Origin: Squalus acanthias
Taxonomy: Eukaryota
Direction of reading: 5' to 3'
Assembly: GCA_030390025.1 (NCBI GenBank)
Contig: CM059438.1
Coordinates: 15,562,001 to 15,626,000, forward strand
Length of the DNA: 64,000 nucleotides
Shown here: positions 2,805 through 58,100 of the stretch, piece after piece
Position numbering within the stretch: position 1 is the first letter of the stretch
Layout: every line of letters starts with the position of its first letter
Translations under genes and position numbers: made by a program
The notes under the pieces: model-generated
What the model saw: only the letters and a program-made list of their open reading frames with translations
Database searches by the model: none
What the model was told of the DNA's origin: nothing

Positions 2805-3570
2805 GGGCCAGAAATTCGGCTCTCCGGCTTCCTGCGGGTGCAAGGATCGCGCGCGTACTTACCTACCGCGCCTGCCGCTGTGCTTCAGGCCCGCGTGGAC
2901 TTCGGCTCCTGGGCCTCCTGCAGCTGCCGGCGCGCAGTGCTTGCGTATCCCAGGGGCGCAGTTAGTTCGAAGCGTCCTCTGGGATCACGTGGGCCATGGA
3001 GAGCCAATCGGAGCAGGGAATCTCCATTCATAGATTTTGACAGGAAGACCTGTCAAATCTATGAATAGAGATCGGCCCCAAAACCTCACTTAAACTTCAA
3101 ATAAATTTAAAAAAAACATCACATTTTTAAAATAACTATAAATTACATAAATTAACTACTTTAAACAAAAATTTAAATTTTTGAAAAAATTAATTACACT
3201 TTTTAACGGTGCTAAAAATAAACTTACCTTTCTTTAAAGTATGTAAAAAAGATAAACCTGTTGAAAAAATGTTTAAATTCTACTTAATTCACCACTTACC
3301 TTGTTAAAAGCAGGCCTTGCGCCTCCTTTTTTCCTGCGCAGCTTCTCCATAATTACCCTTCAAAGAGAAACCTGAAAAAAAAAATGAAGTTCGCTGCGTA
3401 CGCGCTGCCTCTCCAGCGCACGCGGTTGACCCTCGAACCCCTTCTTTCACGAGACCGGAAGTTCCGGTTTCCCGTGCATGCGCAGTGCATGCGCGAAACC
3501 GGCACTTCCGGTGGCCCTACGGGTGAGTACACAGCGCGTACTCACCCGTGGAGACCCGAATTTCTGCCCC
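2805..3570 (+). mobile_element. ~760-bp PIF/Harbinger-type MITE, copy A
   Basis: Imperfect TIR gggccagaaattcgg/ccgaatttctgcccc, 3-bp TSD ATA; colinear with four other copies; orientation label arbitrary. Confidence 0.85.
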
Positions 3571-4056
3571 ATAATTTCTGTATATCTGATCAGTGATGCA
3601 AGTAACCTCATCATGTCAGGGATAATGTTATTTTGGTTTATATATCACTAAAAAGCTTTGTCAATGACTTTCAGTGACAAAGATTGCTGTTTCAAAGAAA
3701 TACTGCAGGGGCAATTTTTCTAGTAGGGATAATTAAGTGCCCAAGGATACTGTTTATTTGCAAAGAAACGAGGCTGGCTATTTCTTACTGCAGTAAATTA
3801 AACAGGTGAAATCTTTATTGACTATAGAATGATACAATCGTACGACTCAGGCTATTAAATTACTTATACGATAGCAAAATACTGCAGATGCTGGAAATCC
3901 GAAATAACAACAGAAAAATACTTATATTGGTACTGAATCTAACTGAAACACCTTATTGTACAAAGGGGAATCCTTTACGAGTGAAAGTTAATTGGCATGC
4001 GCTAAACTCATAATATTCAGTGTGCGGAGCAATTAAAACATAAATAATTCAATAAT

Positions 4057-4821
4057 GGCCCTGAAATTCGCCTCTCCGGCTTGCCGCGGGGGTAAGGATC
4101 GCGCGCGCACTTACCTACCGCGCCTGCTGTTGACCTCTGGGCCCACGGGAACTTCAGCTCCTGGGCCTGCTCCAAGTGCCGGCGCGCAGTGCTTGCATGT
4201 CCCAGGGGCGTAGTTAGTGCGATGCGTCCCCTGGGATCACGTGGGCCATGGAGAGCCAATGGCAGCAGACCATCTTTCATTCATAGATTTGACAGGAAGA
4301 CCTGTCAAATCTATGAATTGAAATCGGCCCCAAAAGAACAGCTAAACTGCAAATAATTTTTTTTTAAAAACACCACATTTATAAAATAACTATAAGTTAA
4401 ATAAATTAACTACTTTAAACAAAAATTTAAATTTTTGAAAAAATTTAAATACTTTTTAACAGTGCTAAAAATAAACTTACCTTTCTTTAAAGTATCTAAA
4501 AAAGATAAACCTGTTGAAAATTTTTTTAATTATAATTAATTAACCACTTACCTTGTTGAAAACGGGTCCTGCGCCTCCTTTTTAAAAGCGCAGGTTCTTC
4601 AATACTTACCCTCCCGGAGAAACCTGAAAAAACCCCTAAGTTTGCTGCGTGCGCGCAGCCTCTACCGCGCACGCGGTTCACCTCTGAACCGCTCCCTTCA
4701 CGAGACCGGAAGTTCCGGTTTCCCGCGCATGCGCAGTGCATGCAGGAAACCGGCACTTCAGGAGGCCTTGCGGGTGAGTACACAGCACGTACTCACCCGG
4801 CAAGGGCTGAATTTTTGACCC
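4057..4821 (+). mobile_element. Same MITE family, copy B
   Basis: TIR ggccctgaaattc/gaatttttgaccc, TSD AAT. Confidence 0.85.
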
Positions 4822-5617
4822 AATATTTTATGCTAGCATTAGGGATTTTATATAGAAGAAATGAGTCAATGCATTAGAGTTCTGTTTAGATCAGATGTGC
4901 ACATACATTTGGAATTGATAATATTAAATTTTTATTGATATATAGAGTTACATTAGATTAGATCACATTAGATTTGACATGCAAACCTGTCATTATTCTT
5001 TACTATGTTTTACTCAATAGCACTGAAGACTGTGTGAGTATGTAACAATCTCAAGAGGAAATGACAAAGTGGTGCAGAGTAAATTACAGTGACATCTAAA
5101 TTGTCTGCCAGGGAAACAGTTTATTTAGTGGCCATTATAAAATTTAGCAAGAGCACTGTGTTTGGTGCCAACACAGCAACTGCCACACTCAGCTGGATTT
5201 TGTTTTGTTTGGACCTATTATTGCAATTAAATGGGTAAATGTATACTTGAGAGTGGGCCGCTGGGTCTGAGTTCACCAGAGTTTAAGTGAAAGATGAAGT
5301 CTTAATTGACACAGCGGGAAAATGCACGTGACAAGCTTTCTGAGTTTTTCAACAGTCTGTTTCAATTGAAAATACTAATGTAGGCAGAACTCCATAATTG
5401 TCTCCAGTTGAAATGTATGCAAAGTTTGGAGATCAATTGTAGAGGTAAATAGGTCAACCTATCCTTTCTATACATTTCTTAACTGATTGTTGTTTAGAAA
5501 GTGGATATTTCTTTTTAAATTTCTTGGGGTGCGATACGGTGGCGTGGCATATTGGCAATCCGACATATTGCATCATATTGTGGTAGCAAGGTTTGGCCTT
5601 GCCAGTGTAAGGATGAA

Positions 5618-5790
5618 TGTGAGAAGTCGCACAACACCAGGTTATAGTCCAACAGCTTTATTTGAAATCACCTGACAAAGGAGCAGCACTCCGAAAGCTT
5701 GTGATTTCAAATAAAGCTGTTGGACTATAACCTGGTGTTGTGCGACTTCTCACAGTTGTCCACCCCAGTCCAACACCGGCATCTCCGCAT
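5618..5790 (+). mobile_element. Penelope-like element terminal fragment with inverted duplication
   Basis: Perfect 54-bp inverted repeat 5618-5671/5701-5754; 15-bp flanking direct repeat cagtgtaaggatgaa at 5603 and 5791; hammerhead-like loop. Confidence 0.75.
5664..5708 (+). ncRNA. Minimal type I hammerhead ribozyme-like motif, core variant
   Basis: gaaatcac-CTGACAA-aGGAGcagcaCTCC-GAAAgcTT-gtgatttc. Helix I, helix II and palindromic AAGCTT are present; CTGACAA departs from CUGANGA at G8. Confidence 0.55.
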
Positions 5791-7037
5791 CAGTGTAAGG
5801 ATGAACAGAGGGGAAGATCAGTGCTTCTTCACAAGGGTGGCTAGAAAATTGAAGGGACAGTGATCCATCCCCCTGCCTTCTCGCCCAGCCACACTTTCGC
5901 ATTTCCTGCCACAAGATCTAAAGCAAAATTGAATTGGCAGCTGCCGGGGAGATGTTCAGCTGCCCACCCTTTTGTTTGAAGAATGGTGGACATGGACTGG
6001 GAATGCGATGAGAGAGGAAAAAATTAAAAGTACATTCCTTTTTTGGTGGGGAGGAGGGAAGTGAAGTATCTTGGGCTTGTGACAAAGAGAAATTACATTC
6101 CTGCTTCGCTGTGATTAAAGTATCTGGACTGACAGTAAATGATTTCAAAAATGAGCCCTAGTTCCAGAGCCGAAGTGCTTGTGGCTCTAAGCACCACTGA
6201 CAGCTGATTACCAGAGGCATCTTTGCAAGGAGCCTGCGGCTGCATTAAGTGGCCTTTAGTTCTGATGATATTCCACAATGTATATTTATCACCAGGAAAT
6301 GGTTTTGGAATATTGGTCTAATCCAGTTTAATGTGATCTCTGCTAAGCTTCTAATACACTAATCAAGCACAACCTAATAAAAGTCCAATGCCCCTACTTC
6401 ATGACAAAATTAAACTCTTTTATCCCCGTGCTATAGTCGCACCTACCTGTTGCGTCAAAGCTAAAGCAATTTTGGTTACATACTAACGTGTTTGCATATT
6501 ACAGATACAACTGTTCAAAATAGTTGGTAGTTTCGATCTTCCTTCAAGGATGCTGTCAGTTTCAGAGTGCTTTTCAATTCTGCTGGTAAGATTCACTGAA
6601 TGACCCGATGATCTGGGCTGGATCTTCCTCTTTACGGTGGTGTTCCAGCAGGGCGGGAGTCCCAGCCCACCCCTCTGACACAGCCAGAACCCTGTCCCAT
6701 TTTCCTGGGTCGAAGGTCATTATCCATGCCCGGCAGGATTCCTGCTGTCAAGAGTGAGCCTGCCAAGCCACTGAGGAACACTGAATTACAATATCTCAGG
6801 TGTTGATGGTGAATAAGTCAGAAAGCAAAAGTGGGATATAAAGGCTTTTCGTTCTACTTAAGTCTCAGCTATTAAACATATCGATCATCTGCAACTTGCA
6901 CAACTCTTCCCATTTTATGCTGTAAAGCATTACAGGGTAGAATGCTTCTTTATTTGATCGTGTTGTCACACAGCGTCAAATTGTTAACCTTCAGAAAACT
7001 AATTCCTTTTTCTTTTTAATTTCCTTTTTATTTGCAG

Positions 7038-7115
7038 CCAACACGATCTTCTTCTGAAAGTATTTCCTCCAGACCTGGTTCTAGCATCCCTGGTTCACCC
7101 GGTCACACAATTTAT
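7038..7115 (+). CDS. ABLIM1: ABLIM1-like exon [26 protein letters not shown]
   Basis: Long pyrimidine tract + tttgcag acceptor, gtgagt donor, 78 nt, phase 0-0; near identical to the ABLIM1 segment after the last LIM domain. Confidence 0.93.
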
Positions 7116-10100
7116 GTGAGTAACTATGGTACATTTCTTTGTTCTTGAATTCAAAATCTCTAATAAATAAAAAATAATACGGACGATTTTCCTCTGACCT
7201 TACACCAGTTTCCCAGCATAACTCAGGTGAAGCCCTGACCCAAAGAGGGGTCATGCATAGCCAAATGAGGCGGTAATAAATGAATGACATTATATGCCAC
7301 ATTTTCTGTCATTACTACCTCGCAATGCTGGATGCCAGGAACGCTTTGTACATCAGGCGTTGCTAGGGCTGACAGCGACCTTTTAAAAATTAAATGGCTA
7401 GGGAGAGCAATCACCCACCCACTTCAGCTGGGATGTTGCGGAGGCCAGATGCTTTTCCCAGCCTGGAAGAGGACGGCCCTTTAAGCTGCTGCAGGTGCCA
7501 GAGTGCTGCAGCAGTCAGGATTTTCTACTCCCCACCGTGACGGGCTCCACAGCGCCGGTAGAAACGCCGCCGCGAGCTGCCAAAAGATTTCATATGAGTC
7601 AATCCTGAGAAATTTGCTGGAATGAGTAGCACACGTCTGACTGGATGGAATTTCCCGCCCGCCACTCCTATAGTGGCATAGTTGCTGAAGAGGAAAGTCT
7701 CAGCAGACACCTTTTGTATGATTTTCACTTTTTTTCCTCATGTTATAAGACTGAACTTGAGTAACAGCCTTTGGGGGAAAAATTCAGTTGCTTTGTGCCT
7801 CCCGTTAGCACCCTAAGAGGGCGTTAACGGGGCACAAAGCAACTAGCGCCTGGGCGCGGCGCCGCCAACGCATCCCGCGAAATTCAGCGGGAGGTTAGTG
7901 GCGATGCTAACCGTTAGCGCCCCGCGACGCTGCGCCGCCGGCGATGATGTCATCACCGTGCGCAGCGCCCCGCTCGCGCACCGGCCGCAATCTTCGGTAG
8001 CGCCCCCTGACTTACGCTATATCCGACGGGGTCAGGGGGGCCTACCTGCGGCCGGGGCGGCGCTATTTAAAGGCGAGGTGCCGGGCGGCCATTTTTGTTG
8101 CTGGTCGCCTGCCAGCACCTGCCTCCACTCCCGTCCCTGGCCTCCTGACCCGCACACCCCCGCCCCTGCACTCCGATCCCCAGTGGCCCAGCTGGGCCCT
8201 GGGTTGCGCTGCGCAAGGCCCCTCCCCTTTAAGAAGGGGAGGAAGGCCTGCAATACCGCGGCGCGACCGCTGCACCACATAGCGCCGCGATATTCCCTCG
8301 CAGCACCCCAAGAGGGAAGCGGGGCGCTTCCAGTAGCGCCCCGCATCCCTCTTGGGGTGCTACCACTCAATTTCAGCCGTGGGGGCGTTAATTTTTCCGG
8401 GGCGCGACTCAATTTCTCCCCCTTTATCTCTTAATATACCTGACCGTAAATTCTGGGATGATGTATTCTTTCTCTGCACTGCTTACGTAGTCACACAACT
8501 GTGTAGTGTTATATAACGCATGACAAAATAAAAGTGATTTCCCAGACAGTAAAATAAACAAGCAGTTGCACACTGTGGAAACAGTGATGAGGACGCAATT
8601 GCATTTGACATGTTTCATTAGTACATTCGACCTTTGATGTTGTTTCTGTGTGTACTGGCATTAATATTATGTAAAATGTCGCTACTTTGACATGTTTTCA
8701 TGAGGCTCTTCTTTCCCTGAAGGCAAGTTGCCAATGAGTGAAAAAACTAAAGCCTGGCGGAAATCTGGGGGGAAAAAACCAGTCCATTCAGCCGTTCAAA
8801 CCCACTTTTTTCCAACTTCCCAGCCATGGACTCCAGGGTGATCTTCTGAGGCCGAGGTTGGCCTGAAGACAAATGGTTGGGGTGGAGTAGATAGAGCTTC
8901 ACATTGCATCTACCCCTTGCTATACTGATCTGTGAACGTTTAATGCTGACACAGTCAAGTAAAATACACCCAAAACAAACAACAAAAACGTATAGCCTAT
9001 TCTATTTGAAACTGTGATGTTCATTACTGTTTCTTTAGATTAAGTTTACTGTTATCTCATACCCTCACTTGAGTTTGAGAAATGTGACCACATAAGCTGA
9101 GGTGAGCTGAATTATTCTTGTATGTTTTATCTTTCCAGGCAAAAGTGGACAATGAGATTCTTGACTACAAGGATCTGGCTGCCATTCCCAAAGTGAAGGC
9201 CATTTATGACATTGAACGCCCTGACCTGATCACCTATGAGCCGTATTTTGGCGCCACCTTTGAGGATAGACATGAACGTCATAGTATGGGAGAGGTATAG
9301 TACAACCAACTGCCCTTAATAAGTCAGTTTCAAAACACTAGATCACCCATTGTCCTGTATTTGTTCCATTAAACATTTTGGGGTCAATTTTCGATTCTGG
9401 TATACCCTGGGTTAGATGATGGGCAGGGTGTCCACTCCACCTGCCCAATGACGTCAGCGGAAGGGCCGATCAATTTTCGTGATTGGGGCTCATTTCAATA
9501 CAGGTGGTAAACTGCGAGCACTAGTTGTGCTGCTTATAGGCAGCTTACCATTTTGGAGGGCAGGAAGTCTGGTGGAGTACAGACTGAAGTGTGCTTGCAG
9601 CAGCCCCTAAAACGGGGAGGGCTGAACAGGTCAGGGGTCAACGGGGCTGCAGATTCCAGTGCTCGGGAAAAGTAAAGAACACACACTAAACAGCAAGGAG
9701 GTGAAATTAAGGGAGCCTTTAAGGTTTAAAAGCCCCACCAATAATGAAGGAAAAGTCATTACCAGACCTGCCTCCAGCTTAACTTGACTGAAACTTATGG
9801 TCCCTTTAAGTTTAACTTGACTGCAATTTATAGTCCCTTTAAGTAGCGCAGCAAATGGCCGCCTCTCGACCTGTACTACCTATGGTTTGTGGGCAGGTTG
9901 AGGAAGCAGCAATGGGCGGGCTTCTGGCGCTAAGTGAACGATTTTTTTTGGTACAGTTTTTGTCCCAATACTGCCCCATTCACACCGAGAAATGGGCGGT
10001 AGGGAGATGATAATCAGTCCCCTTGTTTCTAACACCAACTAGTAATGAATGTTTGATAAGAAAAATTCAAAGATAACTGATAAATTTTTCTTCGTCACCA

Positions 10101-13100: not shown

Positions 13101-16100
13101 TTATTACTCAAAATGCACAGCACAGTGCCATCAGGTGCATGTATCAGTGCCATCAGGCGCATGTATCAGTGCCATCAGGCGCATGTATCGGTGCCATCAG
13201 GTGCATGTATCAGTGCCATCAGGTGCATGTATCAGTGCCATCAGGTGCATATATCAGTGTCATCAGGTGCATATATCAGTGCAGAAAATCAAAATTCATG
13301 AGAATATAAGAAAGCAAGAGACAGGGAAAGGCCAATAGGTCCAGTCCTTCCAGAGCCCATATGCAATCAACATGCCAGTATGTAGTTTCATGAGTGGCAG
13401 ATGACCTCTTGTCCCTACCAAAGTGACCATTCTCCATGTGGGAGCTTTAATGAGCGTTGGCAAACTAGTCACCTGTAGGGGGCCATCATAACCCAGCTAA
13501 GTCCCGTTGTCATTCAACATCAAATGCCCAGCTGCAGTAAGATTTATTAAATAGGGATCATGATTGAGAACTTTGGCTGATCTTTATTTTCCCTCTTCTA
13601 AGCCAAGGGTGCTGAGGCCAATTGTAACACTCCACTGCCAGGATGAGGTCAGCTAACTCAGCACAGATTGAAGCCAGTGAACTTTCTGCTTTACATGGCT
13701 CACTGTTACACAGAGCAGTGCCTTTATGTACTGAGCCATCAGGGTGGATGCAAGCAACACATCGGATCAAGAAATTAAGTTCTTAATGCTGCATGTACTA
13801 AGGGGGGATTGAGATGTGTAGCAGACTAGTTCTATTAACTAAGGGGAAACACCAGTCTCCTATTATGTTCCACGTCAAATCCTCCTCTTGCATCTCTCCA
13901 TTAATAGTTCCCTCTTGTAGAGAGGATGAGGAAGGAGGCAAAAGATCATTTTATGTGTTGACATTCCTGAAGGTAATTGAGTATTCATGTTTGCTTTGAA
14001 ATGTTGGTGAGCTGCCAATTAACGTTTTTATTGAATGTATCATGCTGGTTTGAGTGCATTTAGATCATATGATCAGTTACCCTGGAATGCAGCACTGATT
14101 CTTGGGACAAAGATCCTTCGGGAGTACTAATTCAGTACTATGTACATTTTATACAGTTATAACAAAAGTATATATTCATTAACAATGTACCTGGCAAGAT
14201 ACAACTTTGATTCATTTAATATGAGAGAATACATGCAATAGAATTATTGCTTAATGGGGAAGGAATGGACTCCACCCATGTTTATGTTAAAATCCATAAT
14301 TGTAAAAATACTTAGCATTTGATACAATATGGGAATTTTCCTGTCCTTCCTGTCTATTTGAGTCTCTCTCCAACTTGGCTGCTTCAGTGACATCACTGAG
14401 AGAGAGAAGCCACTTGCATCTTGGAGCGTCCCCGTTCATTTTAATGGGGATCATAACTTCAGACCAGCTATGGAGCTGGCCCAAACCAAGAACAAGACAC
14501 GTTACTGGTCGAGTACCCTGCGTAGTTTCCAAGAAATGTGTTTTGTCAGGATCCCCTTTACTAAACTGAAATAGTCAAATTACACAGTTATGAGAGAAAG
14601 CTACCATTGTGTGCACTGTGCATAGTTGAAGCTCTTTTTGCATATACAAAATATCGCTGTTAAGTATCTGTGTGTCTTAGCTCATGCTTTGTCGATATAC
14701 TTTGTCCACCAGTATTGCTGATTTGCATTTGTATCATTATTGCATAAATGTTGACATTTTGTTTATTGTAACGTAACTTTTTAAAAAATCATCAAGTGTT
14801 TGTGTTTCTAAATATATATCCCAGAAACAAATCAAAAGGTTTTTGGTGAGTCATTTTCTCAGAGGCACAATCAATTTCTATATGATGGTACCAAGGAAAA
14901 TAGCTTTACATGTTTTTTTTTCTTTTCTAATATCTCACAGTCGCCAAGGACACTTTCCCCCACACCTTCCACTGAGGTCAGTAAATCCCTTCATGTTCAG
15001 CTCTCAGCCTTCTCTTCTTCACAGTCTTCATTTGCTTCGTGCAATGGTGTAGTCCCCAGTGGATCAGTAGAATTGTGTGACGTTTAGTCTAACAGTTCTT
15101 ACTGGACACTGAAAGAAAACACATTGCATTGTAGCCCAATGTAACCCGCTCCCACTTTACAATCTGCTCGTGGAGATGAAAGAAAACTTGTCAATGCTGA
15201 AAATCTCAAATGGAAAACATAAAATGCTGGAAATGCACACCAGCATCTGAAAGAGAAAAGACAAGGTCATAATTTGGGTGGAAGGTCTTCCTCAGATGGA
15301 TTATAATGAAGGGTTACAACTCAAAGTTTTCACCTGCCTTTTGTCTTTCAAATGCTGACAGTCCTGCAATTTTCTGTTGCTTCAATTTTTCAATACAACT
15401 TCCCTAATAAAGAAAGTTGTCAGAAGGTCTTTGTTGAAATTAGTATTCTAGCCGTATTCTGTTATAATCTCTGTGAAAATGATGTTATCATTTGTTCTTA
15501 AATTTAAGAAAGAAGTTAACTGTTGGTGACTGCTGAACTGCTTTTTTGGGTTTGTGTGATTGACATATTTGGTCTTTACTAGTGAGTGTGGCTTAATTAA
15601 AAAAAATAGAAGGGAGTAATCCATTAAACAAATGCCCATTAACAGCAAGGTGCCCATTAATTAGAGCACACAATATTCCATATAGTCCTGTGGATTTTCA
15701 GTTTGTTTTCACAGGAGCTTATATCTTGTATTTTCACTAATGTGAAATATATTACATTTGTGAAAATATCAGTGGAGTGTCATTACCTCATATGGGCTCG
15801 AGTAGTGACATGGCTCAGTGAATAACCAATGGGAGTAGAGATCCTTTGTATGCATTATCCCTAAACATCATCAATTCAAGTCTACTGTGAATTGTTTTAC
15901 CATATCTAATTTTAAAAACAAATAAATCTCCATGGAATAGACAGTACCATTCTTTGCTTGGAGCATTCGTGAATCCTGATCATTCAGACTCTTAAAATGA
16001 ACACAGTAATGTGCTCCTAGCCATGTAATATCCTAGGTATTTCCTATGGGACTGTATGTTTATTATTTTTTTTAAATCTCCCCTCTTTAGCTCCCCTCCC

Positions 16101-22100: not shown

Positions 22101-25100
22101 GACGGGCATCCAAGGTGTAACCAGTTGTGCCAGACTGTAACACTCTTGGAAGTATATGGTGGTAATGATGGATGGGCCCCTGAGTGGATTCAACTGTGGA
22201 CTATGTCACATCCAACTTTAATTATTATTACATTCATGTCATTATTGTATAATCAATTCGCTGTTGAATTCTGTGTAAGCATTCCAGCAAATGTCACACT
22301 CCTATTTTAAAAAATAGTATTTAATATAACTCTCTGGCTTGTCTGATCCGAGTGTGAAGTATATGCAAATATATTTTAGGGATACCATGATGCACGTGAT
22401 CGAATGGTGCATAGGTCCTCCAGTCAAGGCTCCATCAGCTCTCCTGTCTACAATCGCCACTGTTATACACCCACTGTTGCCCGCTCTCCACAGCACTTTC
22501 ACAGGCCTGGTAAGTGAAACAACCCAATCACAGATTTCTAAACCCGAAAGATCGGGCATTCTTTTTTTGAAAAAAATATTATGAAAATAGTTCTAACAAT
22601 GGACAATTTTATTTCGAATGGCAAGTCACGGTGAACTTTCTTGCAAGTTTGAAAGATCCTTTTTCTATTTCTCAGCTGTTATACTGCTCCATGATTGAGG
22701 AATATCGTGGCAAACTGTGCATTGAATGATGTTGTGAAGCTTTCAGATACAGCGAATTATTTTTTAGTGGTGTTGCTTTCATTTTATTTGGTGCTAAAAT
22801 GCTTCGCAGAATGTTCTTAGCTTGTAAAACTAAGCCTCCAATTCTGTTTAACAATGTCGATTATAATAATGTAAGGGATGTGTGATGTTTAATTTTTTGG
22901 AGCTCTCACTCAGCATGTGGCCAGGGATAACTTCGGCTACTTTCAGACAGGAGCCTGTGACCTTTGTCTCACGTACAGTTTGATTGACAATACAGAAGAT
23001 AAACAAGTGCAAAAGCATGGGGGTTGATTTTAACCCTACCCGTCTGGTGGAAACCAGGCAGATGGGCAGTTATAGATGAGCAGTTTACTTACCTGCCCGG
23101 ACGTGACCCTTTACCGCTGTCTCGAATATGAAATTGGAGCGATCTGCAGACAGACCCACTTGCTGCAGGTAGAGGCCTCATGAATGTATGCAAACTGGGG
23201 TCCTATAAGGTCAATAGCACCCCAATGGCATTTTAACCGGGGCCTTGAGCGGGGAAGCTTTCCCGCCAGGCTGAAGCAGGTCAGCAGTTGGTGGGAAGGA
23301 CGAAGAGGCCCACCAGCTTTGTCAAAAAATGTTCTTTGTGGGGCGAGGTTGAGCATGATGTCACCTTCCCCACCCCCGCCCGCCCGCCCCCATTACCTCC
23401 CATGTGACCCTCCCTAAACCCCTTCTCCCTCACTAACCTGGAAGCCGATGGGTGGCCAAGGGCCGCCTGATCTTCCCCTGCCGGCAGCCACTCTGCACCC
23501 TCTTTGGGCCCGTTCCGGGCAAGAAGTGGACCGACATCATTTAAATGAGGCCTGGGAGTTAAAAGATCCCCTACTTGAAACTTAGGCCAGCGAGTGCATT
23601 TTATACTCATCCTGCCCCCCACCCACCTGACACCCGCTCTGGGTAAATATTGTCTCCATGACATTATTATAACCTCAGGTGGGGTTATTTTGGGAAATAA
23701 ACTACGAAAGCCTGTGTGGGCTACTGTGATGAACTATTCTATTGTAGTGAGCCTGTTTATTATTATAACAAAGGTATCAAAATGTGAGGCTCTACTGGAG
23801 AATTGTCCATTGTTGTAGCAACTGGATTCTGCCATGATATAATCGTTCAGGGAGCTGTATCTCTCAAATTGAAGAATAATCTGTAACTGGCTAGGAGACT
23901 ATCCTTGTGATGTTGAGGAGACATTAAATTCTGAATTGATTAAACAGAAATGGCATTGAAAATCCCACAATTACAAGACACACAACAACACAGACCTGCT
24001 TTTGCATTTTTGACGCTTTTCCCACAAATTTATTTCACTCAACAATGGTTGCCTTTAACTTCAGTTAAGGGATGCAACTGCTGCCAACGAAGTTGAAGTA
24101 GTTACGCATGGGCAGTTAGTGTTTTTTTGGTTGTTCGCTTCGGGACTCACGGGCTCTGGGAAATAAATGCCGGGAATACGGAGCGGGCCTTCGGGTCTCA
24201 CCGGCTCTGTGGGGGGAAAAAAAGCAGAAACATCGGCCCAGAAATTTGACTCGGAGGCTTGCCGCGGGGGTAAGGATCGCGCGTGATATCACACTCCGCG
24301 CCGGCCGTTGTGTTTTGGGCCCACAGGAACTTCGGGTCCTGGGCCTCTCCCTGGTGCCGGCGCGCAGTGTGTGCGTGTCCCGGGGCGCAGTTAGTGCGAT
24401 GCGACCTCTGGGATCACGTGGGCCATGGAGAGCCAATGGCAGCACACCATCTTTCATTCATAGATTTGACAGGAGACCTGTCAAATCTGTGAATTGAAAG
24501 AGACCCCAAAAGAACAGCTAAACCTCAAATAAATTTTTTTAAAAACCATCACATTCATAAAATAACTATAGTTAAATAAATTAACCACTTTAAACAAAAA
24601 TTTAAATTTTTGAAAAAATTAAATTTTTTAAAAAAAGTTATAAAAATAAACTTACCTTGCTTTAAAGTCTCTAAAAAAGATAAACCTGTTGAAAAAAATT
24701 GGCCCAAAAATTAGTGCCGCTACGCGAGAGTACGCACTGTGTACTCTCGCGTATTCTGTCTCCAATTGCCGGTTTTCTGCATGCACTGCGCATGCGCTGA
24801 AAACCGGCACTTGGTGAATTCAAAAGGGGGCGGTTCCTAGGTGAACCGCGTGCGCGCTACAGGCTGCGCGCACGCAGTGCACTTAGTGGTTTCAACGCGC
24901 AGGTAAGCATGGAAGATTTTAGACATAAAGAAAGGAGGTGTAAGACCCTCTTTTAACAAGGTAAGTACTTAATTAAGTATTATTTTGAATTTTTTTTAAC
25001 AGGTATATCTTTTTTAGAGACTTTAAAGACAGGTAAGTTTATTTTTATAACTTTTTAAAAGATTTTAAATTTTTTCAAAAATTTAATTTTTTGTTTAAAA

Positions 25101-28100
25101 TGGTTAATTTATTTAACTATACTTATTTTATTAATGTGATGGTTTTTTTTTAAAATTTAATTGAGGTTTAGCTGTTCTTTTGGGGGGGTATAGTATTCAT
25201 AGCTTTCACAGCCGTGCTGTGAAAGCTATGAATGAAAGATGGTGTGCTGCCATTGGCTCTAACTGAGTCACGTGATCCCACAGCTCGCACGAATTAACTA
25301 CGCCTGTGGGATACGAAAGCACTGCACAGCTGCTGTCCAGAACATCAAGTTCGTGCGAGCTCGGACTGAAAAAGCCAGCGCGCAGTGAGAGATCGCGGGA
25401 AGGCCTTACCCTCGCACGAAGGCTCACTCACTAATTTTTGGGCCATTAAAAATTATACTTAATTAACCACTTACCTTGTTCAAAAGGGGTCTTATGCCTC
25501 CTTTTTTCTTGTGTAGAATCTTCCATACTTACCCTCGCGTTGAAACCTGAAAAAAAACCTAAGTGTGCTGCGTGCGCACAGCCTCTAGTGCGCACGCGGT
25601 TCACCTAGGAACCGCCCCCTTCGCCATACCGGAAGTGCCGGTTTCCCGCGCATGCGCAGTGCATGCAGGAAACCGACACTTCGTGACCGAATACGGGCGA
25701 GTATGCAGCGGGTACTCTTCCGTATTCGGCCGAATTTTTGGGCCATTATCAATATCAGCTTCCAGATTAATGCGCAGAACGGTTCTGCGCAGCGTTGGCA
25801 GCAGTCACTCTGTGTTTTAAGACACTGCCTCGTGTTGCAGTGTTCTGCTTCCTTTGATTTCACATTTCCACGATCCGCTCATTGCTTTTTATTCCTCCTC
25901 CTTTGCTTTCCATCTGATCGGCCCAATGTCCTATTCTGCTGCAGAGCTGCTCTTTACTGGTGTGGAGCGTTCTCTGCATTTGCCCGCTAGCAGTTGCAGC
26001 TCCACCCGCAATGGCTCCGACACAACATCATGCCCCATGTAGGTAAGAGCTGGGCTTTGCTAGCCAGGATGGTATCCTGATTATTGATCATGGGATCACA
26101 CAGCAACTCTTCACAGTTGCTTGAAATTAAATTGGATTCTGTTTGGCTTTTTTTTCCTGAAAAATTGGCAAATACCCAACCTTAATTCATCTTTTATAAC
26201 ATAAAAAAATAGGAGTTGGCCATTAAGCCCCTAGAGCCTGCTCCACCATTCAATTAGATCATGGCTGGTCTATAACTCAACTCCATTTACCTGCCTTGGT
26301 TCCATATCCCTTAATACCCTTACAACCTCAGTTTTGAAATTTTCAATTGACCTAGCCTCAAGAGCTTTTTGGGGGAGAGATTTCCACTACTATTTGTGTG
26401 AAGAAGTGCTTCCTGATATCACCCCTGAGCAGCCTAGCTCTAATGTTAAGGTTATCCCCCCCCACTTTGTTTTGGCCTCCCCTACCAGAGGAAATAGTTT
26501 CTCTCTATCTACCCTATCAAATCCTTTAATAATCTTAAACACTTCCATTAGATCACCCCTTAATCTTCTATACTCAAGGGAATACAAGCCTAGTCTGTGC
26601 AACAATACATTTTAAATGTATTCAATAACAATGGGCATATACTGTAACAAACTCTGCAAATCTCTGCAAACCAGTTAAACTTAATGGAGCTTTGCAGTTC
26701 TTTGTTGATTCTGTGTCTATGACATTCACCAGCTTTAATGGTATATATATTTAAACATAAAACACACAGAGCAAATGGGTCCAAAATGATTTGCAACAGT
26801 GCACACTCTTGGGCTCTGTTTCTTGATTCAATTGAGTCAATGAAAAGACTAAATCCCTCGACTCGTATCAATTTCATTTGGTACAGATGTTTCCATTTAA
26901 CCCATGGCTGCTGCTGCACTTCAGCACCCATGTAAATTATATCATCAGAACACATCTTAAATTCATCCAGTCAATAATGAGAATTACACAATATCTAATG
27001 GGTTGATGCAATTCTGTAATTACCGCTATAATTAGAAATGTAATATTACTCCGTTTCAAGGATAATTGACTCTAACTGCAGCTACATTGCTGTGGCAAAC
27101 CATGTAATTTTTTGTACCCTTTGACAGATTTTAAAAAAAATTAAAAATATTTAAAATTAACAATGCAGCCTGTCAGCCACAGGTTTCATAATTATGACAA
27201 AGGAGCAACAATATTATTCTAATAGTTCTTCTCTCTTGCAAATGGTTCATTATAGAGGAGTTCGTGCGCATTCTGCACAATACTTTCCCAATTTCCAACA
27301 CAACCTTACTACCAAAAGCTAACAGCCAATTACCTGAATAATCTGACTGTAGATTTCAATGCCCTCTATTACATTGTGAAACCTATTCAAGTCTAGGCTG
27401 TCCTGGAATGTATAAAATGCATGCCATTATTATACGGTTCAGATTCTGAATGTGTTTGCTGTTAAAAGCTATTATCACGCCCACTCTGTACTTTCAGCTG
27501 CCATGTTTAAATTTTACTGCCCAAGATATATTTGACAATTTGTTTCTCCGATAATCATAACACCATAGCAATAATTTTGTCAAATTAAAGCGTACAGTGT
27601 GTTCAGGCTTGATATGATTTCAATACTCAGTTATTTTCTTTTTACTTGTGACTTAAAATAGTAACATTTCATAAAATTGATCCCCAAAGGTGAGATTGTA
27701 TTACTTTAGATTAAAAAAAGCACAAAATAAAACCAGGAAATGTGTAGCGGGTTGGCGGTCAGCATCTGAGAGAGATAGATTTCATTTCAGGTATGACCCA
27801 GAAAATGAACCTATCTTTCTCTTTCAATTGCATTTGACCTGTTGTGCATTTGCAACGTTTTCTGTTGTAAAGCTTGTTACCATAACTGCACTCTGATTTC
27901 ATCAGAGATCTAGAAGCTTCCATAATAGAAGACATTTGCTACAAGCGTGAATCATTTTGCCTTGTTTAACCCTCAGACAATGCAGGAAGTCAAGAGTAAT
28001 AGCTGAGACACTGAAACAAACACTCATGTTTGCAGCAACACATTGATTGAGATGTTAGGAGCAGTTTTGTTCCTATAATAACACCATAGGACTAAAATAT

Positions 28101-49100: not shown

Positions 49101-52100
49101 TAGAGTGTAAAATGCTTTGTGCAGTTATTGTAAATGAGGAGTAGCCTTGATATTAACGTAATGTGCCCTGGCAAGAACGGGGTAGTTCCGGGTCGGATGC
49201 CCGATTTACACCCTGCCGGATTTTCGGCTTTGTTGTAGTCACTGGAGCGCAAAATTGGACAAGGTTTAAATTGAGCATCTGGCCAAACCCGCATCTATTG
49301 TGGCCGGGCACGTTAGGTTAAAATTGGGCCTTTAAACATTTGGAAATTTTAAAACCTAGACTAAGAATAAAAATATTAGATGTGTTTCAATTTTGAATTC
49401 AAGTAAATTAGAGCTAATTGAGGACTTCTACCTTTGACAATAGCCTGAAATATTTCTATATGAATGGGAATTTTTTTTTAAATTCGAAGGGGGGAATTTT
49501 CCGGGGGGTCAGTGGGCGCAATCGGTGGCAGGCCGGGTGGGAAACTTTTTTTTTTGACAGCGGGTCTGGACCCTGCTGTCAACCTGCTGCCACGCACCTT
49601 TCCCAAATGTCGGGTCTGCCAGCGTTGAGCAGACCCGACAGGCAGTGGCGGGAGAGGCAATTGAAATCATTAATGGCTTGTTTACAGCCACTTAACAATG
49701 CATTTTTCCCAGCTTTTTGATTTTGACAGGTCGCCCACCGCTTTCCCGCTGTGCCTAGACCTCGTCAGTGAAGCTGAGGCGGGAGGTCACTATCCATTGT
49801 TTCAGCTGATGAGTTGACAGCTTCAAATACCAAGTCAAAGCTCCCAGCTGATTCAGCTAGCTTCTCTAAACTGCATTTTCACTACAGATTCAGGATGCTG
49901 CAAGTCTTTACACAAGTCTCCATCCAGTCTGACCTCATTACCTCTCCCACCATTGACAGATCACTTCTGTCATCTCTACTTCACCTGCCATCTATTCCAT
50001 CAGCATGGGTGACCTTGAAACTCTCTCACCTTAGTCCTCAGAATCCCACCACAATCAACCTGAACACCAGCATCACCAGGCACACCAGCAGCACCAACAA
50101 CAACACCAGCCTTCTCCGCAATCAACTGATGCTGCACAGGACAGAGGGCATCAGCACCCGACCACATTGCTGCCTGGGAGGCCAGGGATGGCCTCACCAT
50201 GGCCAGATTTACTTCCCTTGACGCTGTACACCCTGGCTGCCAAATGATGCGCCAGGTTGTCACCACCCCACACCAACACCATAAAGCATCCCTAAATGCC
50301 CAAGCCATTCCTTTCACACTCATCACCATTGTGGGGGGTACCGTTACGTCTCACCATTCACTGCAACTCACTAAGCCACTTCCAAATCTGTCCGAGAATG
50401 CAAAATGTTGAAAATAAAGATTTAAATGTTTGACAGCACATTAACAGAAACTTCACATGAACATTGGCTAAAACACACAAGTGCCTACCCTTGTGTGTTG
50501 TTAGTTGGTACGATTGGACTAGGATGAGGGTGAGTGTGAGGGGTGGCTAGTGAGATGGAGAAGTGATAATGTAGATAGAGAGGGATGGGTGGAGGTGCAA
50601 GGGAAGTTGGTGTGAGTAAGGATGTGCAGGAGTAGTGTAGGGAAGGTAGAGTGATGGGGATGTGATGAGTGGCACAGCAGGATGAGGTTGACTGTGGCTT
50701 TGCAGTAACGTTTCATGATCTACTGAGATCATCGAAAGGTTTGCACCACTGCAGCCTGGTCCTCCTGACGACACCCCTGCTTGTGCCCTCCTCTGCAATG
50801 TGCATAAGCATATGGAGGGAGTCATGGGAGAGCCTGGGTGCAGCCCTGCACCTCTGTGCAGTGCTTATCAGTGTTTGCAGCACCTCAATGCTGTAAAACA
50901 CTGACAGCACAAATGTCAAAAGAAAGTTGGCCATGGTCCCTTTAAGGAAACCGGTTGATGACGCGTCATCAAATGACATCATCAGACCCGCTTCCTTCAA
51001 TTGGCCGGGAAACGTGCTGGGTGGGGCTTAACAAGCCCACTCAGTGGAAAATCATTCTACACAGTGGGCTGGAGCCAGCAGCGAGGCCGGGACCCGCCCG
51101 AGGTTGGTAAAATCAGCTCTAAGTTAATTACAGCATTTGGTATGCTATAGCTTCATAAGCTATTAAAGCTAAATTGAATGATCAAGATGTGACCTATTGT
51201 GTTCATGCATGTGAGCAATGCTGGTAAGAATGCACCGGACATGGGTCTAATTCAGTGTTGCCCAATAGAAATCGCTGACTAGCCACAGGTGAGGTTATCG
51301 AGACATCATTTTAGCCACATACATGAATTTTAGTAGAAAATGTCATACACACAATACAGGTCAATGTACTTTACGTGTATACTTAGTTAAAAAACATCTA
51401 CCACTATTTAGTGCAAAACTTTGTACTCTTCTCTTTCACCAAAGTTTGGAATTCTGTCATGAATTCATCAGACACAGCATAACAGTGCAGCTTCTAGGTT
51501 TTTGTTCAGCAGTTGCGAGTGGTACTTCGACTTCATCAGTGATCGCCAAGAATGTTAACTCGCACAACAAGACGTGTCAGACCTGCCCCTCCCTCCACCC
51601 AGAATGTGGTTGGATGCTGCTCGCCCTTTGCCATCATGTGCTCTGTTGGAGCTGCTCGTTATTGGATGGACTTGTCTTCTGCTGGCCTAGAGCGGTTCTG
51701 CTAATTGGTCGAGCTGACCCCAGCTTCCCTCTCCATACAATGTGACTGATGTTTCCATGGTGCTGAAGTTCAGCGTTTTCGCTCATGTTACACACCATTC
51801 CAGCGGATAAACAATAAGCATTAACGAAACAAGTAAAGCGCAAACAATAAAAAAAAACACTCACTCACTCTGCTTTTCATCTTAACATTTTACCAACAAA
51901 TGCACAAAAAAAGTTAAAGTACGCACACAAATGCCGTACGAACATGAATATTGAGATCACGTGCCCAACAATGGTGTCTGTTACCATTTTTTATTCACTA
52001 ATCACAAATGCAATTAGCCACAAGTGACTAGTGGCTAATTTATTGGACAACACTGGTCTAACTACTAGTTCTACATTATTTATGTATGCATTTATGGTAG

Positions 52101-55100
52101 AGCACAGTGATGTAGTAATAAATCTATAATAACTGGTAGAATACAATTATCTGTTAAGACATCTGTAGACTGAATCACTGACCTAAAAACCTTTACAGAT
52201 TGATTGCACTGTCCTCTTATTTTGTTAGCCGCAGTCCACAGATTTCACACAGTATGACAGCTACAGCGACGTAAGCGAAGGTGTCAGAGGTAGGAATGTC
52301 TTTCACCTTGTGTTTCTGTTCCGTTTATAAAATATGTATAAACTCAGTCGCACTTCTCTTGTGGAAAATGGATCAAGGGCCATGGCCTAATTCTGCTCCA
52401 GGCTTGTGTATGAGTTTCATTAAATCGCTCTGAATGTACCTAAGTTGCCCATAGTAAGTAGATCTGTTGCTATTCCTGTACCTAGTCCCTGTAAATCTAC
52501 AGCAAACGAATGCTGCTACTACAGCAGATAAATGAGTGCATCTGCTGTACGTTGATGTGCTTCAGTGCCTTTGATGTAGGCTGTAGCAGTACGTGGTAAA
52601 CTGCCACTTTATAAAGTAATAACTAACATAAGATTTTTATTTCCATCAGTTACTTCTCTAGGAATTTTACTCTTGCGGAACAAAACTAGTTCATATGAAG
52701 CTCGTAATTATAGTGTAGTGCACATCTATATATTGTCAATTGTCTGATTTATTTAGAAAGTATAAGAAAGCAATGCTGGTATCAAATCCATCTGCTATGA
52801 AATTATATTGGGACCGAAACTGCCGCTCCGCTACCATATAATGACCCGTGTTCCTGAGCCCACCAGAGTATCTAGGGTCAGGACAAGGTCAAGTTGCTTA
52901 AAATGGGTACTTGCCAGGGTGAGGAGATAGGAAAATGCAATGCTTGGATGCCGTGTGCATGAGCAGCTGGTAGGCCAGCTTCATTGGACTCTGGTAGGCC
53001 CAGCTTCATTGGACTCTGGAAGGCCAGCTTCATTGGACTCTGGTAGGCCCAGCTTCATTGGTCTCTGGAAGGCCAGCTTCATTGGACTCTGGTAGGCCCA
53101 GCTTCATTGGACTCTGGAAGGCCCAGCTTCATTGGTCTCTGGTAGGCCCAGCTTCATTGGTCTCTGGTAGGCTCAGCTTCATTGGTCTCTGGTAGGCCAG
53201 CTTCATTGGACTCTGGAAGGCTCAGCTTCATTGGTCTCTGGTAGGCCCAGCTTCATTGGACTCTGGAAGGCCCAGCTTCATTGGACTCTGGTAGGCCCAG
53301 CTTCATTGGACGCTGGAAGGCCCAGCTTCATTGGTCTCTGGTAGGCCCAGCTTCATTGGACTCTGGTAGGCCCAGCTTCATTGGACGCTGGAAGGCCCAG
53401 CTTCATTGGACTCTGGTAGGCCCAGTTTCATTGGACTCTGGTAGACCCAGCTTCATTGGACTCTGGTAGGCCCAGCTTCATTGGACTCTGGTAGACCCAG
53501 CTTCATTGGACTCTGGTAGGCCCAGCTTCATTGGACTCTGGTAGGCCCAGCTTCATTGGACTCTGGAAGGCCCAGCTTCATTGGTCTCTGGTAGGCCCAG
53601 CTTCATTGGACTCTGGTAGGCCCAGCTTCATTGGACTCTGGTAGGCCCAGCTTCATTGGTCTCTGGTAGACCCAGCTTCATTGGACTCTGGTAGGCCCAG
53701 CTTCATTGGACTCTGGTAGGCCCAGCTTCATTGGACTCTGGAAGGCCCAGCTTCATTGGTCTCTGGTAGGCCCAGCTTCATTGGACTCTGGTAGACCCAG
53801 CTTCATTGGACTCTGGTAGGCCCAGCTTCATTGGACTCTGGTAGGCCCAGCTTCATTGGACTCTGGTAGGCCCAGTTTCATTGGACTCTGGTAGGCCCAG
53901 CTTCATTGGACTCTGGTAGGCCCAGTTTCATTGGACTCTGGTAGGCCGTTTCATTGGACTCTGGTAGGCCCAGCTTCATTGGACCCTGGTCCCTGTTAAT
54001 CAGCCCCCTTTTTAAGAGGTCCAATTTAAACTTTGGGTGTTTTCCAGGCCACAAGTCCAGCCTGGCCATCATTTCCATGGCTCTTTTGACCTGGACACCA
54101 GTATCTTACTGCTGTGCAGCTTTCTCAGGGCAAAGGAGATGGAGACAGTGAGAGTTCCAGTGGGTGACACCATCCTGCCCAGCCCTGCCGAGCCTGCCTC
54201 CTCACAAATGTTAGGCCATCATTGTGAAAGATGAAACTTCTGTCTGCCCTTGGCCCCTAACCTGTTGTTAAAGCTGAGCTGGTTCAGTATCCAACTGGGA
54301 AGGTGCTTGGTAATTATAAGGATAAGTAAATAGGGACATGATTAAATATCCCATGGGGCTTGATGGTTCCTATGCTGTGAGGCAGGGTGGAATGTTACCT
54401 GAAGGACAGGAAGCCAGGGTTGAATAATGAAAATTGAGGATGAGTGAATTTTCTTGGTCATGTTTGGAGTACAATGAGTTTTTACGCATAACTTTCCCTC
54501 AAGATTCAATCGGTGCGTTAGAATCTATGGAGGTCTGGGGAAGAAGTGGACTTGATGGGGCTGAATAGTCATTTCCTGTTCCATGCTCTATCATCTTCCT
54601 GAACAACCGGGTCCCAGATTTTTAGCATCTGGCACTCCATAATTGATTGCTTACCAATATCTTACTGCCTTACTTTCCCTCCAACCTTTCAAGAAAGTGC
54701 TTTTTGCTTGGTGCTGCCCCAGATATCAAAGTCCCACCCTTCCAGCAGCGTGCTGTGCCTCACATTGTTCCAATGAAAATGTTATTATGTTTTCTGAAAC
54801 AAATGGATTTCATTAACATTCCTGGTTTTCACATAGTTCTCACTGACTTATAAATTCCTATAGTTTAGGTCGTGATTGCTTCTGGGTTTTAATTTATGCC
54901 CAGCCCATTTTCATACAATTGCCTTTTTAAAGTTTGTTGCTTGCGACTTTCAGGAAAAATCTCAAAAGAATTAGCATTACGTGCCATTTTATCCTTGAAG
55001 CGTGTGTCAGAGGCTGTAGCTGTAATTCCCAGGAATGCCCTGTGAGAGCCTCAGAGCTCCTCTTATTAATACAGTTTGGCACTGCCACCTAGCAGCTGGA

Positions 55101-58100
55101 AGCAGAACAGACAGTGGCTGCTGCTCATTGTTGCAGGAAATTAGAATAGCCGCATTCTCAGCTAGGCAGACGTGGGAGAGGAATAAAATCAGCCAGGATT
55201 CCTGCCCTTGGTCACTATTCAGTGATGTCGATCTCGGAGTGATTTCGGAGCAGCTGCTCCGAAAGCTTGTGATTTCAAATAAAACTGTTAGACTATAACC
55301 TGGTGTTGTGCGACTTCTCACTATTCAGTGAGTCCTTGTTGGAAAGTACATATTTGTAGATCTTGGTTGAGGACCGGATTAAGGTTGGCTGTGATAACCC
55401 TCGGCTCGAATAGCTCACCAGTACTCGTTATCTGGACTCGCAGATCAATCATTGAAATCGGGCTCTTTGAAAACATGTGTGCAAATGCTTAATCCGTTTG
55501 TATGAAATGTCTTTGTCTGTTCTTTGAATGTGGGTGTTAAACTGTTTATTTTCAATGAGTTAACACCCCCATTAAGAAATAAACAGAGGAATTTCATGTG
55601 AATTAATTAGTCAGCACTTTAGGGGTGGGGGGGGAGGGTAGAGGAGAAAATAGGGAACACTGGAAAAGCAAAATGAGGTCCAGTATCGCTTAAGGAACTT
55701 ATCAGTTAATAAACACAAGTTTATTTTAGGAACTATTACAACCTTAAAAATTAACAAACATGCCTGAACCTTATTTTACTGGACTGCAAATTGATGAATA
55801 AGATGGATGTGACTATGACTGATCCAATTTTGTTTTCGGGATACAAACATTTTGTTCTGAAGAAAAGATAAGAGCTTTATCAAAATGACTCCGGCACAGG
55901 CAGGGGTGACAGCTGAGTAGAGGTGGAGTGCTTACATCTGAACCAGATGGCCCCCGGCTCAGAACTGCCTGTGAACTGTATGCGGCTCGGAATCTTTTTC
56001 CGCCCTTGGTCTGACTGGTTGGCAGAGTGCCTGGCAGAAGTGGGCGTTGATAAGCTGGCGTGGCTTCCTTATCCCTGCTATAGCCTGCTGGTTGGGTATG
56101 GAGCAGTATTGATAGTGATTGTGGTAGGAAACTCTGTGCACACCACCCATCCTATTATAGATGGAGACATATATAGAGACAGGTAGATCCTTGCTAGCAG
56201 AACTGAGTCAGTGTAATGTATGCATGTGTACGTTTTTATCAGGATAATTAGAGAAAAAGTAATAACGTGTATAAAAGTGTGCTGCTGATGAACACCAAAG
56301 TAATCATTTTCTTTTTCTGTTTTTCAGAAACCCTGGTACGTTGGTGTCATTAGGAACTTCAAAAATCAATTGACCACAAAAGGGAAAAGGCTAACTTTTT
56401 GCATGTCCTAATGTTTCTTAATTACAATGTTTTTTGCGGCTAAAGAGATGCATAAACTAACGTAATAAATATGGTTTAATATGATCTAGATACCAGTCTA
56501 GGATGTTTTGCAATGATGCTCAGCATAGTTATTTTGGAATGAAATTCAAAGCATTTTTATTTTCCTCAGGGCATTTTAGTTACAAGTGAGAGACGACTGA
56601 TGTGTACATATTTTTAGTAAAATATATTAAGCACGAGTCAACCGTATTATCAAAATATATAACTATTTTTCAAATTTAGTAACTGAACCTGTATTTTAAT
56701 GTTTTATTTGAGTAATGATATACGAATGCCCGCAGGCCTACCACATGGCGACTAGGCCGGGATAAGGGTGAAGCTTGAGTCTGTCAGTCTTATTTGTAGT
56801 TCTTCCTCAAATTGACAGTCCAAACACACACAGTCAGTACAGTTTCTTAAAAAAAAATTACGCCATAACGTTTTTCATTTTTTTTAAACTTTGGATTTTA
56901 GCCCATAATTTTGTGCATACCTTTTGCTACTCTTAAAAACAAACGCTGTCATAGTAGACCAGCTGCCCCTGCAGTTGACTCCATGTGACATCACACCCTG
57001 GTTATTCTCAGTATACAGTATTCAAATGAGGTATGTTTGAATTTGCACTGTGTTCAGAAGGCTAGCCTTTTTGATGGGGGAAAGGGGAATCATATGAATT
57101 AACCGCACCAAATTTGTTGAGTTTACCCAAGGGTTTCTGAAAAATATCCCATTTTTGTCCCTGAAAGATGTTCATACAATTGAAGTTATTGGCCCAGAAA
57201 TTAGACTTCGATGGTTGCCGCGGGGGTAAGGATCCGGCGCGATCTTACCTACCGCACCTGCCTTTATGGTTCGGGCCCACACGAATTTCTGGTCCTGGGC
57301 CTCTCCCTGGTGCCGGCGCGCAGTGTGTGCGTGTCCCAGAGGCGCAGTTAGTTCGATGCGACCTCTGGGATCACGTGGGCCAGTTAGAGCCAATGGCAGC
57401 ACACCATCTTTCATTCATAGTTTTGACAGGAACTGTCAAAACTATGAATACAACTTGCCCCCAAAAGAACAGCTAAACCTCAATTAAATTTAAAAAAAAC
57501 ATCACATTAATAAAATAACTATAGTTAAATAAATTAACCACTTTAAACAAAAATTAAAATTTTTGAAAAAATTTAAATTCTTTTTAAAAGTTATAAAAAT
57601 AAACTTACCTTTCTTTAAAGTCTCTAAAAAAGATAAACCTGTTGAAAAAAATTAAAATAATACTTAATTAACTACTTACCTTGTTAAAAGGGGGTCTTAC
57701 GCCTCCTTTTTTCATGTGTAAAATCTTCCATACTTACCCTCGCGTTCAAACCTGAAAAAAAACCTAAGTGTGCTGCGTGCACACAGCCTCTAGTGCGCAC
57801 GCGGTTCACTTAGGAACCGCCCCCTTCGCAATATCGGAAGTGCCGGTTTCCCGCGCATGCGCAGTGCATGCAGGAAACCGGCACTTCGGGACCGAATACG
57901 GGTGAGTACACAGTGCGTACTCTCCCGTATTCGGCCGAATTTCTGGGCCAACATTTTCTTTGATGTCAACATAAGGCATAATGGAGACTTGGTGGTAATA
58001 ACCAAGGGGTTTGGATTGCATCGGAGGGTTCATTTATACTGCAATTGCAGAACAGTGCAAAACAGCTTCACTTCACAATGATGCTACAGTTATACTGTAA

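Follow-up and report, generated by a model that had tools for sequence, protein, structure and literature searches.

In a 64,000-nucleotide stretch of the genome of Squalus acanthias (GenBank assembly GCA_030390025.1, contig CM059438.1, positions 15,562,001 to 15,626,000 of the forward strand; hereafter the window), we analyzed five copies, A to E, of a MITE (miniature inverted-repeat transposable element) family. Each copy has an internal hairpin, and the two arms of the hairpin covary between subfamilies. This covariation is real at the subfamily level. We put the probability at roughly 60% that it is a mutational by-product: the arms would be kept matched by DNA template switching, and no selection on the fold would be needed.

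Correlated changes in the hairpin arms

An earlier note on the window had described stems of 17-18 bp in all five copies, and we found these stems with the sequences that it gave. (Hairpins and other palindromes are listed here without a strand.) B (4279..4318) and D (25195..25233) each have 18 perfect pairs, and E (57413..57449) has 17. The two flaws that had been noticed are also there: the hairpin of C (24456..24494) has 18 pairs with one G-T at pair 6, and that of A (3026..3066) has a 1-nt bulge. Similarly, both arms do change together at up to three positions: between B and D, pairs 9, 13, and 18 are different on each arm.

To find other members of the family, we used exact matches to an internal 22-base motif that lies outside the hairpin. 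There were 37,218 such matches in the 3.7 Gb genome (and 0 for the reversed motif), which is a lower bound, so the family has at least 37,218 copies. From the first 100 matches along one contig (C1), we obtained a position sample of 97 copies, of which 81 were full length; the other 16 were dropped from clustering. The set to be clustered had 241 sequences: these 81, along with 119 copies from the best hits, 40 additional ones, and copy C. Clustering gave 18 clusters of two or more and 9 singletons. For the covariation test, we excluded the singletons and two 2-copy clusters with hairpin deletions, which left 16 consensuses. (The column of the bulge in A was lost in filtering.)

Across the 16 consensuses, the hairpin stem shows 7 extra Watson-Crick pair types, versus 2.8 in tree simulations (P = 0.0025). 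Between subfamilies, arm changes are correlated beyond a tree-based null. The G-T in C is a subfamily state, with the identical arm pair in 10 of 89 sampled copies.

The main hairpin is the longest of several internal palindromes. Together, seven palindromes have 20 extra pair types versus 11.8 expected (P = 0.0035). Besides the main hairpin, one of them covaries significantly: S5, which has 14 pairs (57837..57887 in E) and 4 extra types versus 1.27 expected (P = 0.0095). The subterminal palindrome S6 (57892..57934 in E) is borderline, with 3 extra types versus 1.22 (P = 0.08). S2, S3, S4, and S7 show no significant covariation; for instance, S2 (57334..57370 in E) has 9 pairs and two extra pair types across subfamilies (P = 0.36). 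The right end, where S5 lies, is also carried by the larger transposase-encoding elements that are described below, and these have S6 too.

Imperfect pairing and one-sided changes

According to the earlier note, pairing stays perfect as the arms change. This does not hold in the larger sample. We could parse the hairpin in 89 of the 97 position-sampled copies: in 26, all of the 16 pairs compared are perfect; in 19, wobbles are the only flaw; and the remaining 44 contain a mismatch or a bulge. The other 8 copies are mostly deleted or interrupted in the hairpin. Also, the bulge of A is shared by its entire subfamily (30/30 A-type copies fetched). Subfamilies with mismatched or bulged stems have amplified.

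Stem changes that are private to one copy affect one arm at a time: among the 120 best-hit copies, all 22 such changes are one-sided and none are two-sided. On a tree that was built without the hairpin, one-sided states sit between matched ones, and matched states recur further along the ladder of subfamilies. Along this ladder, pair 9 reads A:T, T:A, T-G, C:G, G-G, G-T, and G:C (the order was judged by eye, and the copies are mosaic). A hand tally of restoring versus breaking changes on the tree gave about 10/23, with a binomial P of at most 4e-4, which is indicative only because the copies are mosaic. The stem changes at a rate per site that is similar to that of its flanks (0.83 versus 0.80 and 1.11). 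Overall, the arms do not appear to covary through double changes made simultaneously under strict pairing.

Footprints of template switching

If one arm was copied from the other by a DNA template switch, the arms would be re-matched, and the loop between them could be inverted. Inversion of the spacer is described as a product of inter-strand switching (PMC8604942) and as its strongest sign (PMC8794818). We found four single copies with exactly inverted loops and normal flanks: AAGA became TCTT in L302 and L303, AGA became TCT in L304, and ATG became CAT in L305. These span at least three subfamily backgrounds. When we searched with a pattern that admits all 81 four-change variants of AAGA, only TCTT was recovered (2/2 matches). 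Given 5,228 parent-type matches with either loop, about 3e-5 such inverted copies would be expected by point mutation. There was no inverted D-type loop among the genome matches that were searched.

A second footprint is a block of three stem sites that are matched together. In copies with the left arm AAGTCTC, the right arm was seen in two states: at 18 loci none of the three sites is matched, and at 52 all of them are. Intermediates were found at 0 of these 70 loci (a hand count within the first 100 of 4,151 matches; the upper 95% bound is 4%). The matched copies look like one expansion. In a third case, L261, it is the left arm that was matched to the right, and this is the only such copy genome-wide. 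This conversion in the opposite direction was probably one event. These three kinds of footprint support the earlier note's suggestion that template switching homogenizes the arms.

A related pattern is seen between lineages. L124, L186, and L261 have the loop ACG, with a matched closing pair, and this is the reverse complement of the loop CGT in the neighboring lineages L149 and L237. Here a loop inversion, together with a matching of the arms, may have been amplified; a transfer from the D subfamily is also possible.

The hairpin resembles the quasi-palindromes at which template switching is described (PMC8604942; PMC8794818; bioRxiv 2023.08.09.552703): there, too, a short perfect or near-perfect inverted repeat has a spacer of 3-4 nt, several bases of an arm are matched in one step, and spacers are exactly inverted. 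Such switching is raised during double-strand-break repair in yeast (bioRxiv 2023.08.09.552703). The case described here differs in that the setting is a DNA transposon of a vertebrate, whose tens of thousands of copies allow a per-copy rate to be obtained, and in that the link to transposition-coupled repair is inferred only.

We also compared the consensuses for clusters of changes, anywhere in the element, that could be templated by the reverse complement. There were 7 multi-base events versus 0.9 expected. Since all seven are shifts in the boundaries of A/T runs, we set this result aside.

Resting copies versus amplifying lineages

Could template switching be frequent enough? In resting copies, we estimate the rate of loop inversion as 5.7e-4 per copy (three per 5,228; 95% interval 1.2e-4 to 1.7e-3). 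A specific restoring point change is about 29 times more frequent than this at 2.5% divergence. The resting rate of switching therefore cannot account for frequent re-matching.

Amplifying lineages may be different. In the interior (131-480), the consensus of B is 21% away from that of c2. Within the five large clusters, the distance of copies to the consensus of their cluster is just 0.5-2.5%. Divergence between lineages is about ten times as fast as the aging of resting copies. Apparent age also declines along the ladder (Spearman -0.73, a value that uneven sampling partly inflates). Also, subfamilies share exact end tracts of 40-56 nt with different autonomous elements: A with L253, c2-c4 with L247 at the left end, and c5-c8 with L247/L254 at the right end. 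These observations suggest that amplifying lineages are in another regime. By analogy with other species, the fast divergence and the shared end tracts would be consistent with gap repair that is error-prone and jumps between templates. For yeast, it is reported that double-strand-break repair is 1000 times more mutagenic and perfects an 18-bp quasi-palindrome at 2-7e-6 per event (bioRxiv 2023.08.09.552703), and that homology-dependent repair gives replicative transposition of mPing (PMC10288884).

We therefore propose, as a model, that after excision, the elements of amplifying lineages are copied anew by gap repair that is error-prone. Point errors and template switches would then both be far more frequent than in resting copies, and new mismatches would be re-matched about as often as they arise.

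Several observations weigh against re-matching by template switching. As mentioned above, the resting rate is too low, and the boost in amplifying lineages is a presumed one. For mPing, end joining instead of gap repair can restore excision sites precisely (PMC4561436). Most of the single-pair re-matchings cannot separate switching from point mutation, the three-base difference behind AAGTCTC probably represents a single event, and because the copies are mosaic, the order of changes taken from the tree is uncertain. L302 and L303 have 18 differences in 353 nt and may share one inversion; however, L302 differs from uninverted relatives at 20 of 358 sites, which is a similar distance, so we count three or four inversion events. 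Finally, the outer part of the stem is conserved and the hairpin is retained, as discussed in the next section.

Other explanations for the covariation

The strongest competitor to re-matching by switching is selection, in amplifying copies, on a DNA feature that aids mobilization. This could be a dyad protein site (ATTCATA-N25/26-TATGAAT) or an extruded hairpin, with template switching supplying some of the variants only. The outer 7 pairs (ATTCATA/TATGAAT) hold just 3 of 30 changes (P = 0.0005 versus uniform), which suggests a constraint on sequence. The hairpin is retained in every consensus of three or more copies, even though these consensuses are up to 41% apart, and each of the sampled hairpin deletions occurs once. 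(Deletions overlap the hairpin in 7 of 43 cases, versus 3.6 expected, P = 0.06.) Both the 29-fold shortfall of the resting switch rate and the lack of two-sided changes among the 22 private ones also favor selection.

On the other side, we did not find the hairpin region in six transposase-bearing elements that we tested, five of which share the ends of the MITE (alignment scores were no higher than the shuffled maximum). This implies that the transposition system does not need the hairpin. Furthermore, stems with up to three mismatches or a bulge have amplified, and the invariant fraction of the stem (0.61) is about the same as in the rest of the interior (0.55). Selection also leaves the inverted loops in single copies unexplained. 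We consider selection on a DNA feature to be possible, with the odds clearly against it.

Alternatively, recombination between subfamilies could join arms that were already complementary, so that the covariation would be partly a mosaic effect. Mosaic copies are visible: older backgrounds can carry AAGTCTC hairpins (L274), and autonomous elements have end tracts in common with the MITE. But among the 97 sampled copies, the right arm GAGACTT was not seen outside of the matched subfamily, so a donor for it is missing there, and recombination between parallel copies is unable to invert a loop. This makes recombination an improbable source of the pattern.

Least probable of all is selection on the stem as RNA, for instance as the precursor of a small RNA or as part of read-through transcripts. 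It would account for the significant covariation (P = 0.0025), the element is present in assembled contigs of runs that we guess to be RNA, and the minus strand has donor-like and acceptor-like splice motifs that are largely invariant across subfamilies. But a hand tally of the amplified one-sided states favors no strand: 3 of them are wobbles on the plus strand, 4 are wobbles on the minus strand, and 4 are true mismatches. Rfam had 0 matches in the window. The contigs of the presumed RNA runs cover the MITE and showed no product ends and no joint at the splice-like motifs. An 18-bp stem is also short for a microRNA precursor. Of the earlier note's proposal that the structure is selected, then, the RNA stem is not supported, given that no strand is favored, Rfam has no match, and mismatched or bulged subfamilies amplified; a DNA dyad is possible, at lower odds than switching.

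The MITE family and its autonomous partners

That these elements are MITEs, as the earlier note had recognized, is clear from their short length, lack of coding sequence, terminal inverted repeats (TIRs), target duplication, and high copy number. They are uniform in length (about 745-765 bp), and the TIRs are of ~12 bp and of the type GGCCCAGAAATT. Identical 3-bp flanks, mostly AAT or ATT, border 71 of 120 best-hit copies and 49 of the 74 position-sampled copies with both ends parsed. AWT is present on both sides in 79/120 best-hit copies and 46/74 position-sampled copies. In 27 of these 79 and 10 of these 46, the two flanks differ in the middle base only (AAT versus ATT). Such flanks would be in keeping with an element that brings along overhangs from its donor site when it inserts. 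For mPing, staggered cutting inside the target duplication was proposed (PMC4561436).

To identify elements that could mobilize the MITE, we searched the genome for DDE_Tnp_4 transposases. There were 63,886 candidates, with many open frames of 384-392 amino acids among the best 150, so the genome-wide load of these transposases is very large. We fetched 20 of the 63,886 candidates at length. Many of the 20 are elements of 4.5-4.7 kb with a transposase frame of 384-391 amino acids (DDE_Tnp_4, E = 7.7e-43). They also carry a Myb/SANT gene in the opposite orientation (Myb_DNA-bind_5, E about 1e-13 in L253 and L247). The intron of this gene is absent (skipped) in the contigs of three of four runs.

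These larger elements and the MITE have common ends. L253 matches positions 1-101 of A at 89% identity and 508-765 at 81%, and L247 matches positions 633-744 of D at 95.5%. From the shared ends, we infer that the 4.5-4.7 kb elements with DDE and Myb genes mobilize the MITE. None of the six transposase-bearing elements mentioned above yielded a match to the MITE's interior (about 100-500).

A partner that shares the element's ends and encodes a DDE transposase of the IS5/HARBI1 type places the family in the PHIS superfamily. Within PHIS, Han et al. 2015 (PMC4482050) describe the PIF/Harbinger group as having a TWA target duplication and a Myb gene, and the Pangu group as having an ANT/AWT duplication and a second open reading frame (ORF) without a known domain. 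The partners have the Myb/SANT ORF of PIF/Harbinger, and the target duplication is AWT instead of TWA. This duplication fits the ANT of Pangu, and the Myb/SANT motif in the second ORF does not fit Pangu. Because of this combination, we file the family under PHIS as Harbinger-type; strictly, it is in neither group. PHIS was reported to be absent from sharks in PMC4482050, whose species table includes the chimaera Callorhinchus.

The family resembles Pangu, as described in PMC4482050, in its ANT/AWT duplication (AWT appears in rows of Table S3), in its TIRs (in Pangu, these are 11-40 bp and start with GG or AG), and in having two ORFs in the partners. It differs in the Myb/SANT gene of the partners and in its host, as the Pangu hosts given in that paper include no vertebrate. 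It also resembles Tourist-like MITEs and other non-autonomous PIF/Harbinger elements, such as mPing (PMC4561436, PMC10288884, PMC4482050). These are described as short and non-coding, with short TIRs that start with G and with a target duplication of 3 bp that tolerates variation in its middle base. Their autonomous partners encode a DDE_Tnp_4 transposase and have a Myb/SANT gene. Unlike mPing and its relatives, the family described here has an AWT target rather than TWA, an 18-bp hairpin along with further palindromes, and an interior that was not found in the six elements tested.

In titles and the openings of abstracts, we found no account of this family or of covarying palindromes in a Harbinger MITE; Repbase and Dfam lay outside this search. 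The family may already be catalogued. The mechanism that we favor is a known one, and the element is a new or uncatalogued PHIS (Harbinger-type) element.

The MITE also contains three CTTACC motifs, which read GGTAAG on the minus strand and resemble splice donors (57595-57760 in E, for example). These are almost invariant across the 16 consensuses, and there are acceptor-like tracts nearby. The motifs could be remnants of 5' leader exons of the transposase or repeated protein sites.

Copies in the window and their surroundings

The five copies in the window belong to five separate subfamilies. For A, B, D, and E, the best 40 genome matches of each are 95-99% identical to their own query. Copy A (2805..3570, + strand) is a full-length non-autonomous element with TIRs GGGCCAGAAATT and AATTTCTGCCCC and an ATA duplication. 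Copy B (4057..4821, +) is full length, with an AAT duplication; its hairpin has the loop AAGA, which is the loop that is inverted in L302 and L303. Copy C is broken by the insertion of copy D, with its left part at 24235..24700 (+) and the remainder beyond D at 25445..25744 (+). Copy D (24701..25444, - strand) is from a young subfamily and is nested in C in the opposite orientation, with an ATT duplication. Copy E (57191..57949, +) is full length.

Among the copies fetched from elsewhere in the genome, the members L205-L208, L188, L223, and L235 form a young subfamily that is 29-41% from all others. These have the TIR GGCCCGTATTTTCC, a new 10-bp stem near the left end, and re-matched palindromes at the right end. 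In one copy (L181), a tRNA-like short interspersed element was apparently inserted into the hairpin loop.

The window also contains other repeats. An RVT_1 reverse-transcriptase open frame of 362 amino acids (1626-2714, - strand) adjoins copy A and is likely a fragment of a long interspersed element, with a second copy near 28.7-29.4 kb. There are tandem arrays at 52967-53990 (25 bp x 41) and 13123-13282 (22 bp x 7). At 5611-5761, there is an unrelated inverted repeat whose arms of 61 nt are 95% complementary and 29 nt apart.

Implications

Compensatory base changes are usually taken as proof of a selected RNA stem. In this family, each change affects a single arm, and a copying slip likely re-matches the two, so the covariation alone does not show a hidden RNA or function. 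Compensatory changes can stem from a slip in copying DNA. From the loop inversions, the rate of template switching in a vertebrate genome can also be read directly, at about 6e-4 per copy over ~2.5% divergence.

The various observations can be joined into a broader account, which as a whole is speculative, and which we would rate slightly below selection on a DNA feature. The family would be a record of mutagenesis by transposition-coupled repair in a vertebrate germ line: its amplifying lineages would mutate at least ten times faster than resting copies, with hairpins re-matched by switching and ends refreshed from active autonomous elements, while the dyad ATTCATA-N25/26-TATGAAT would give a mobility edge that the partners lack. 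In this account, the family would combine, as a variant within PHIS, an AWT target of the Pangu type and a partner gene of the Myb/SANT type. If the fast evolution of lineages and the swapping of ends are confirmed, then it would become testable how cut-and-paste MITEs multiply and how they track their transposase donors.

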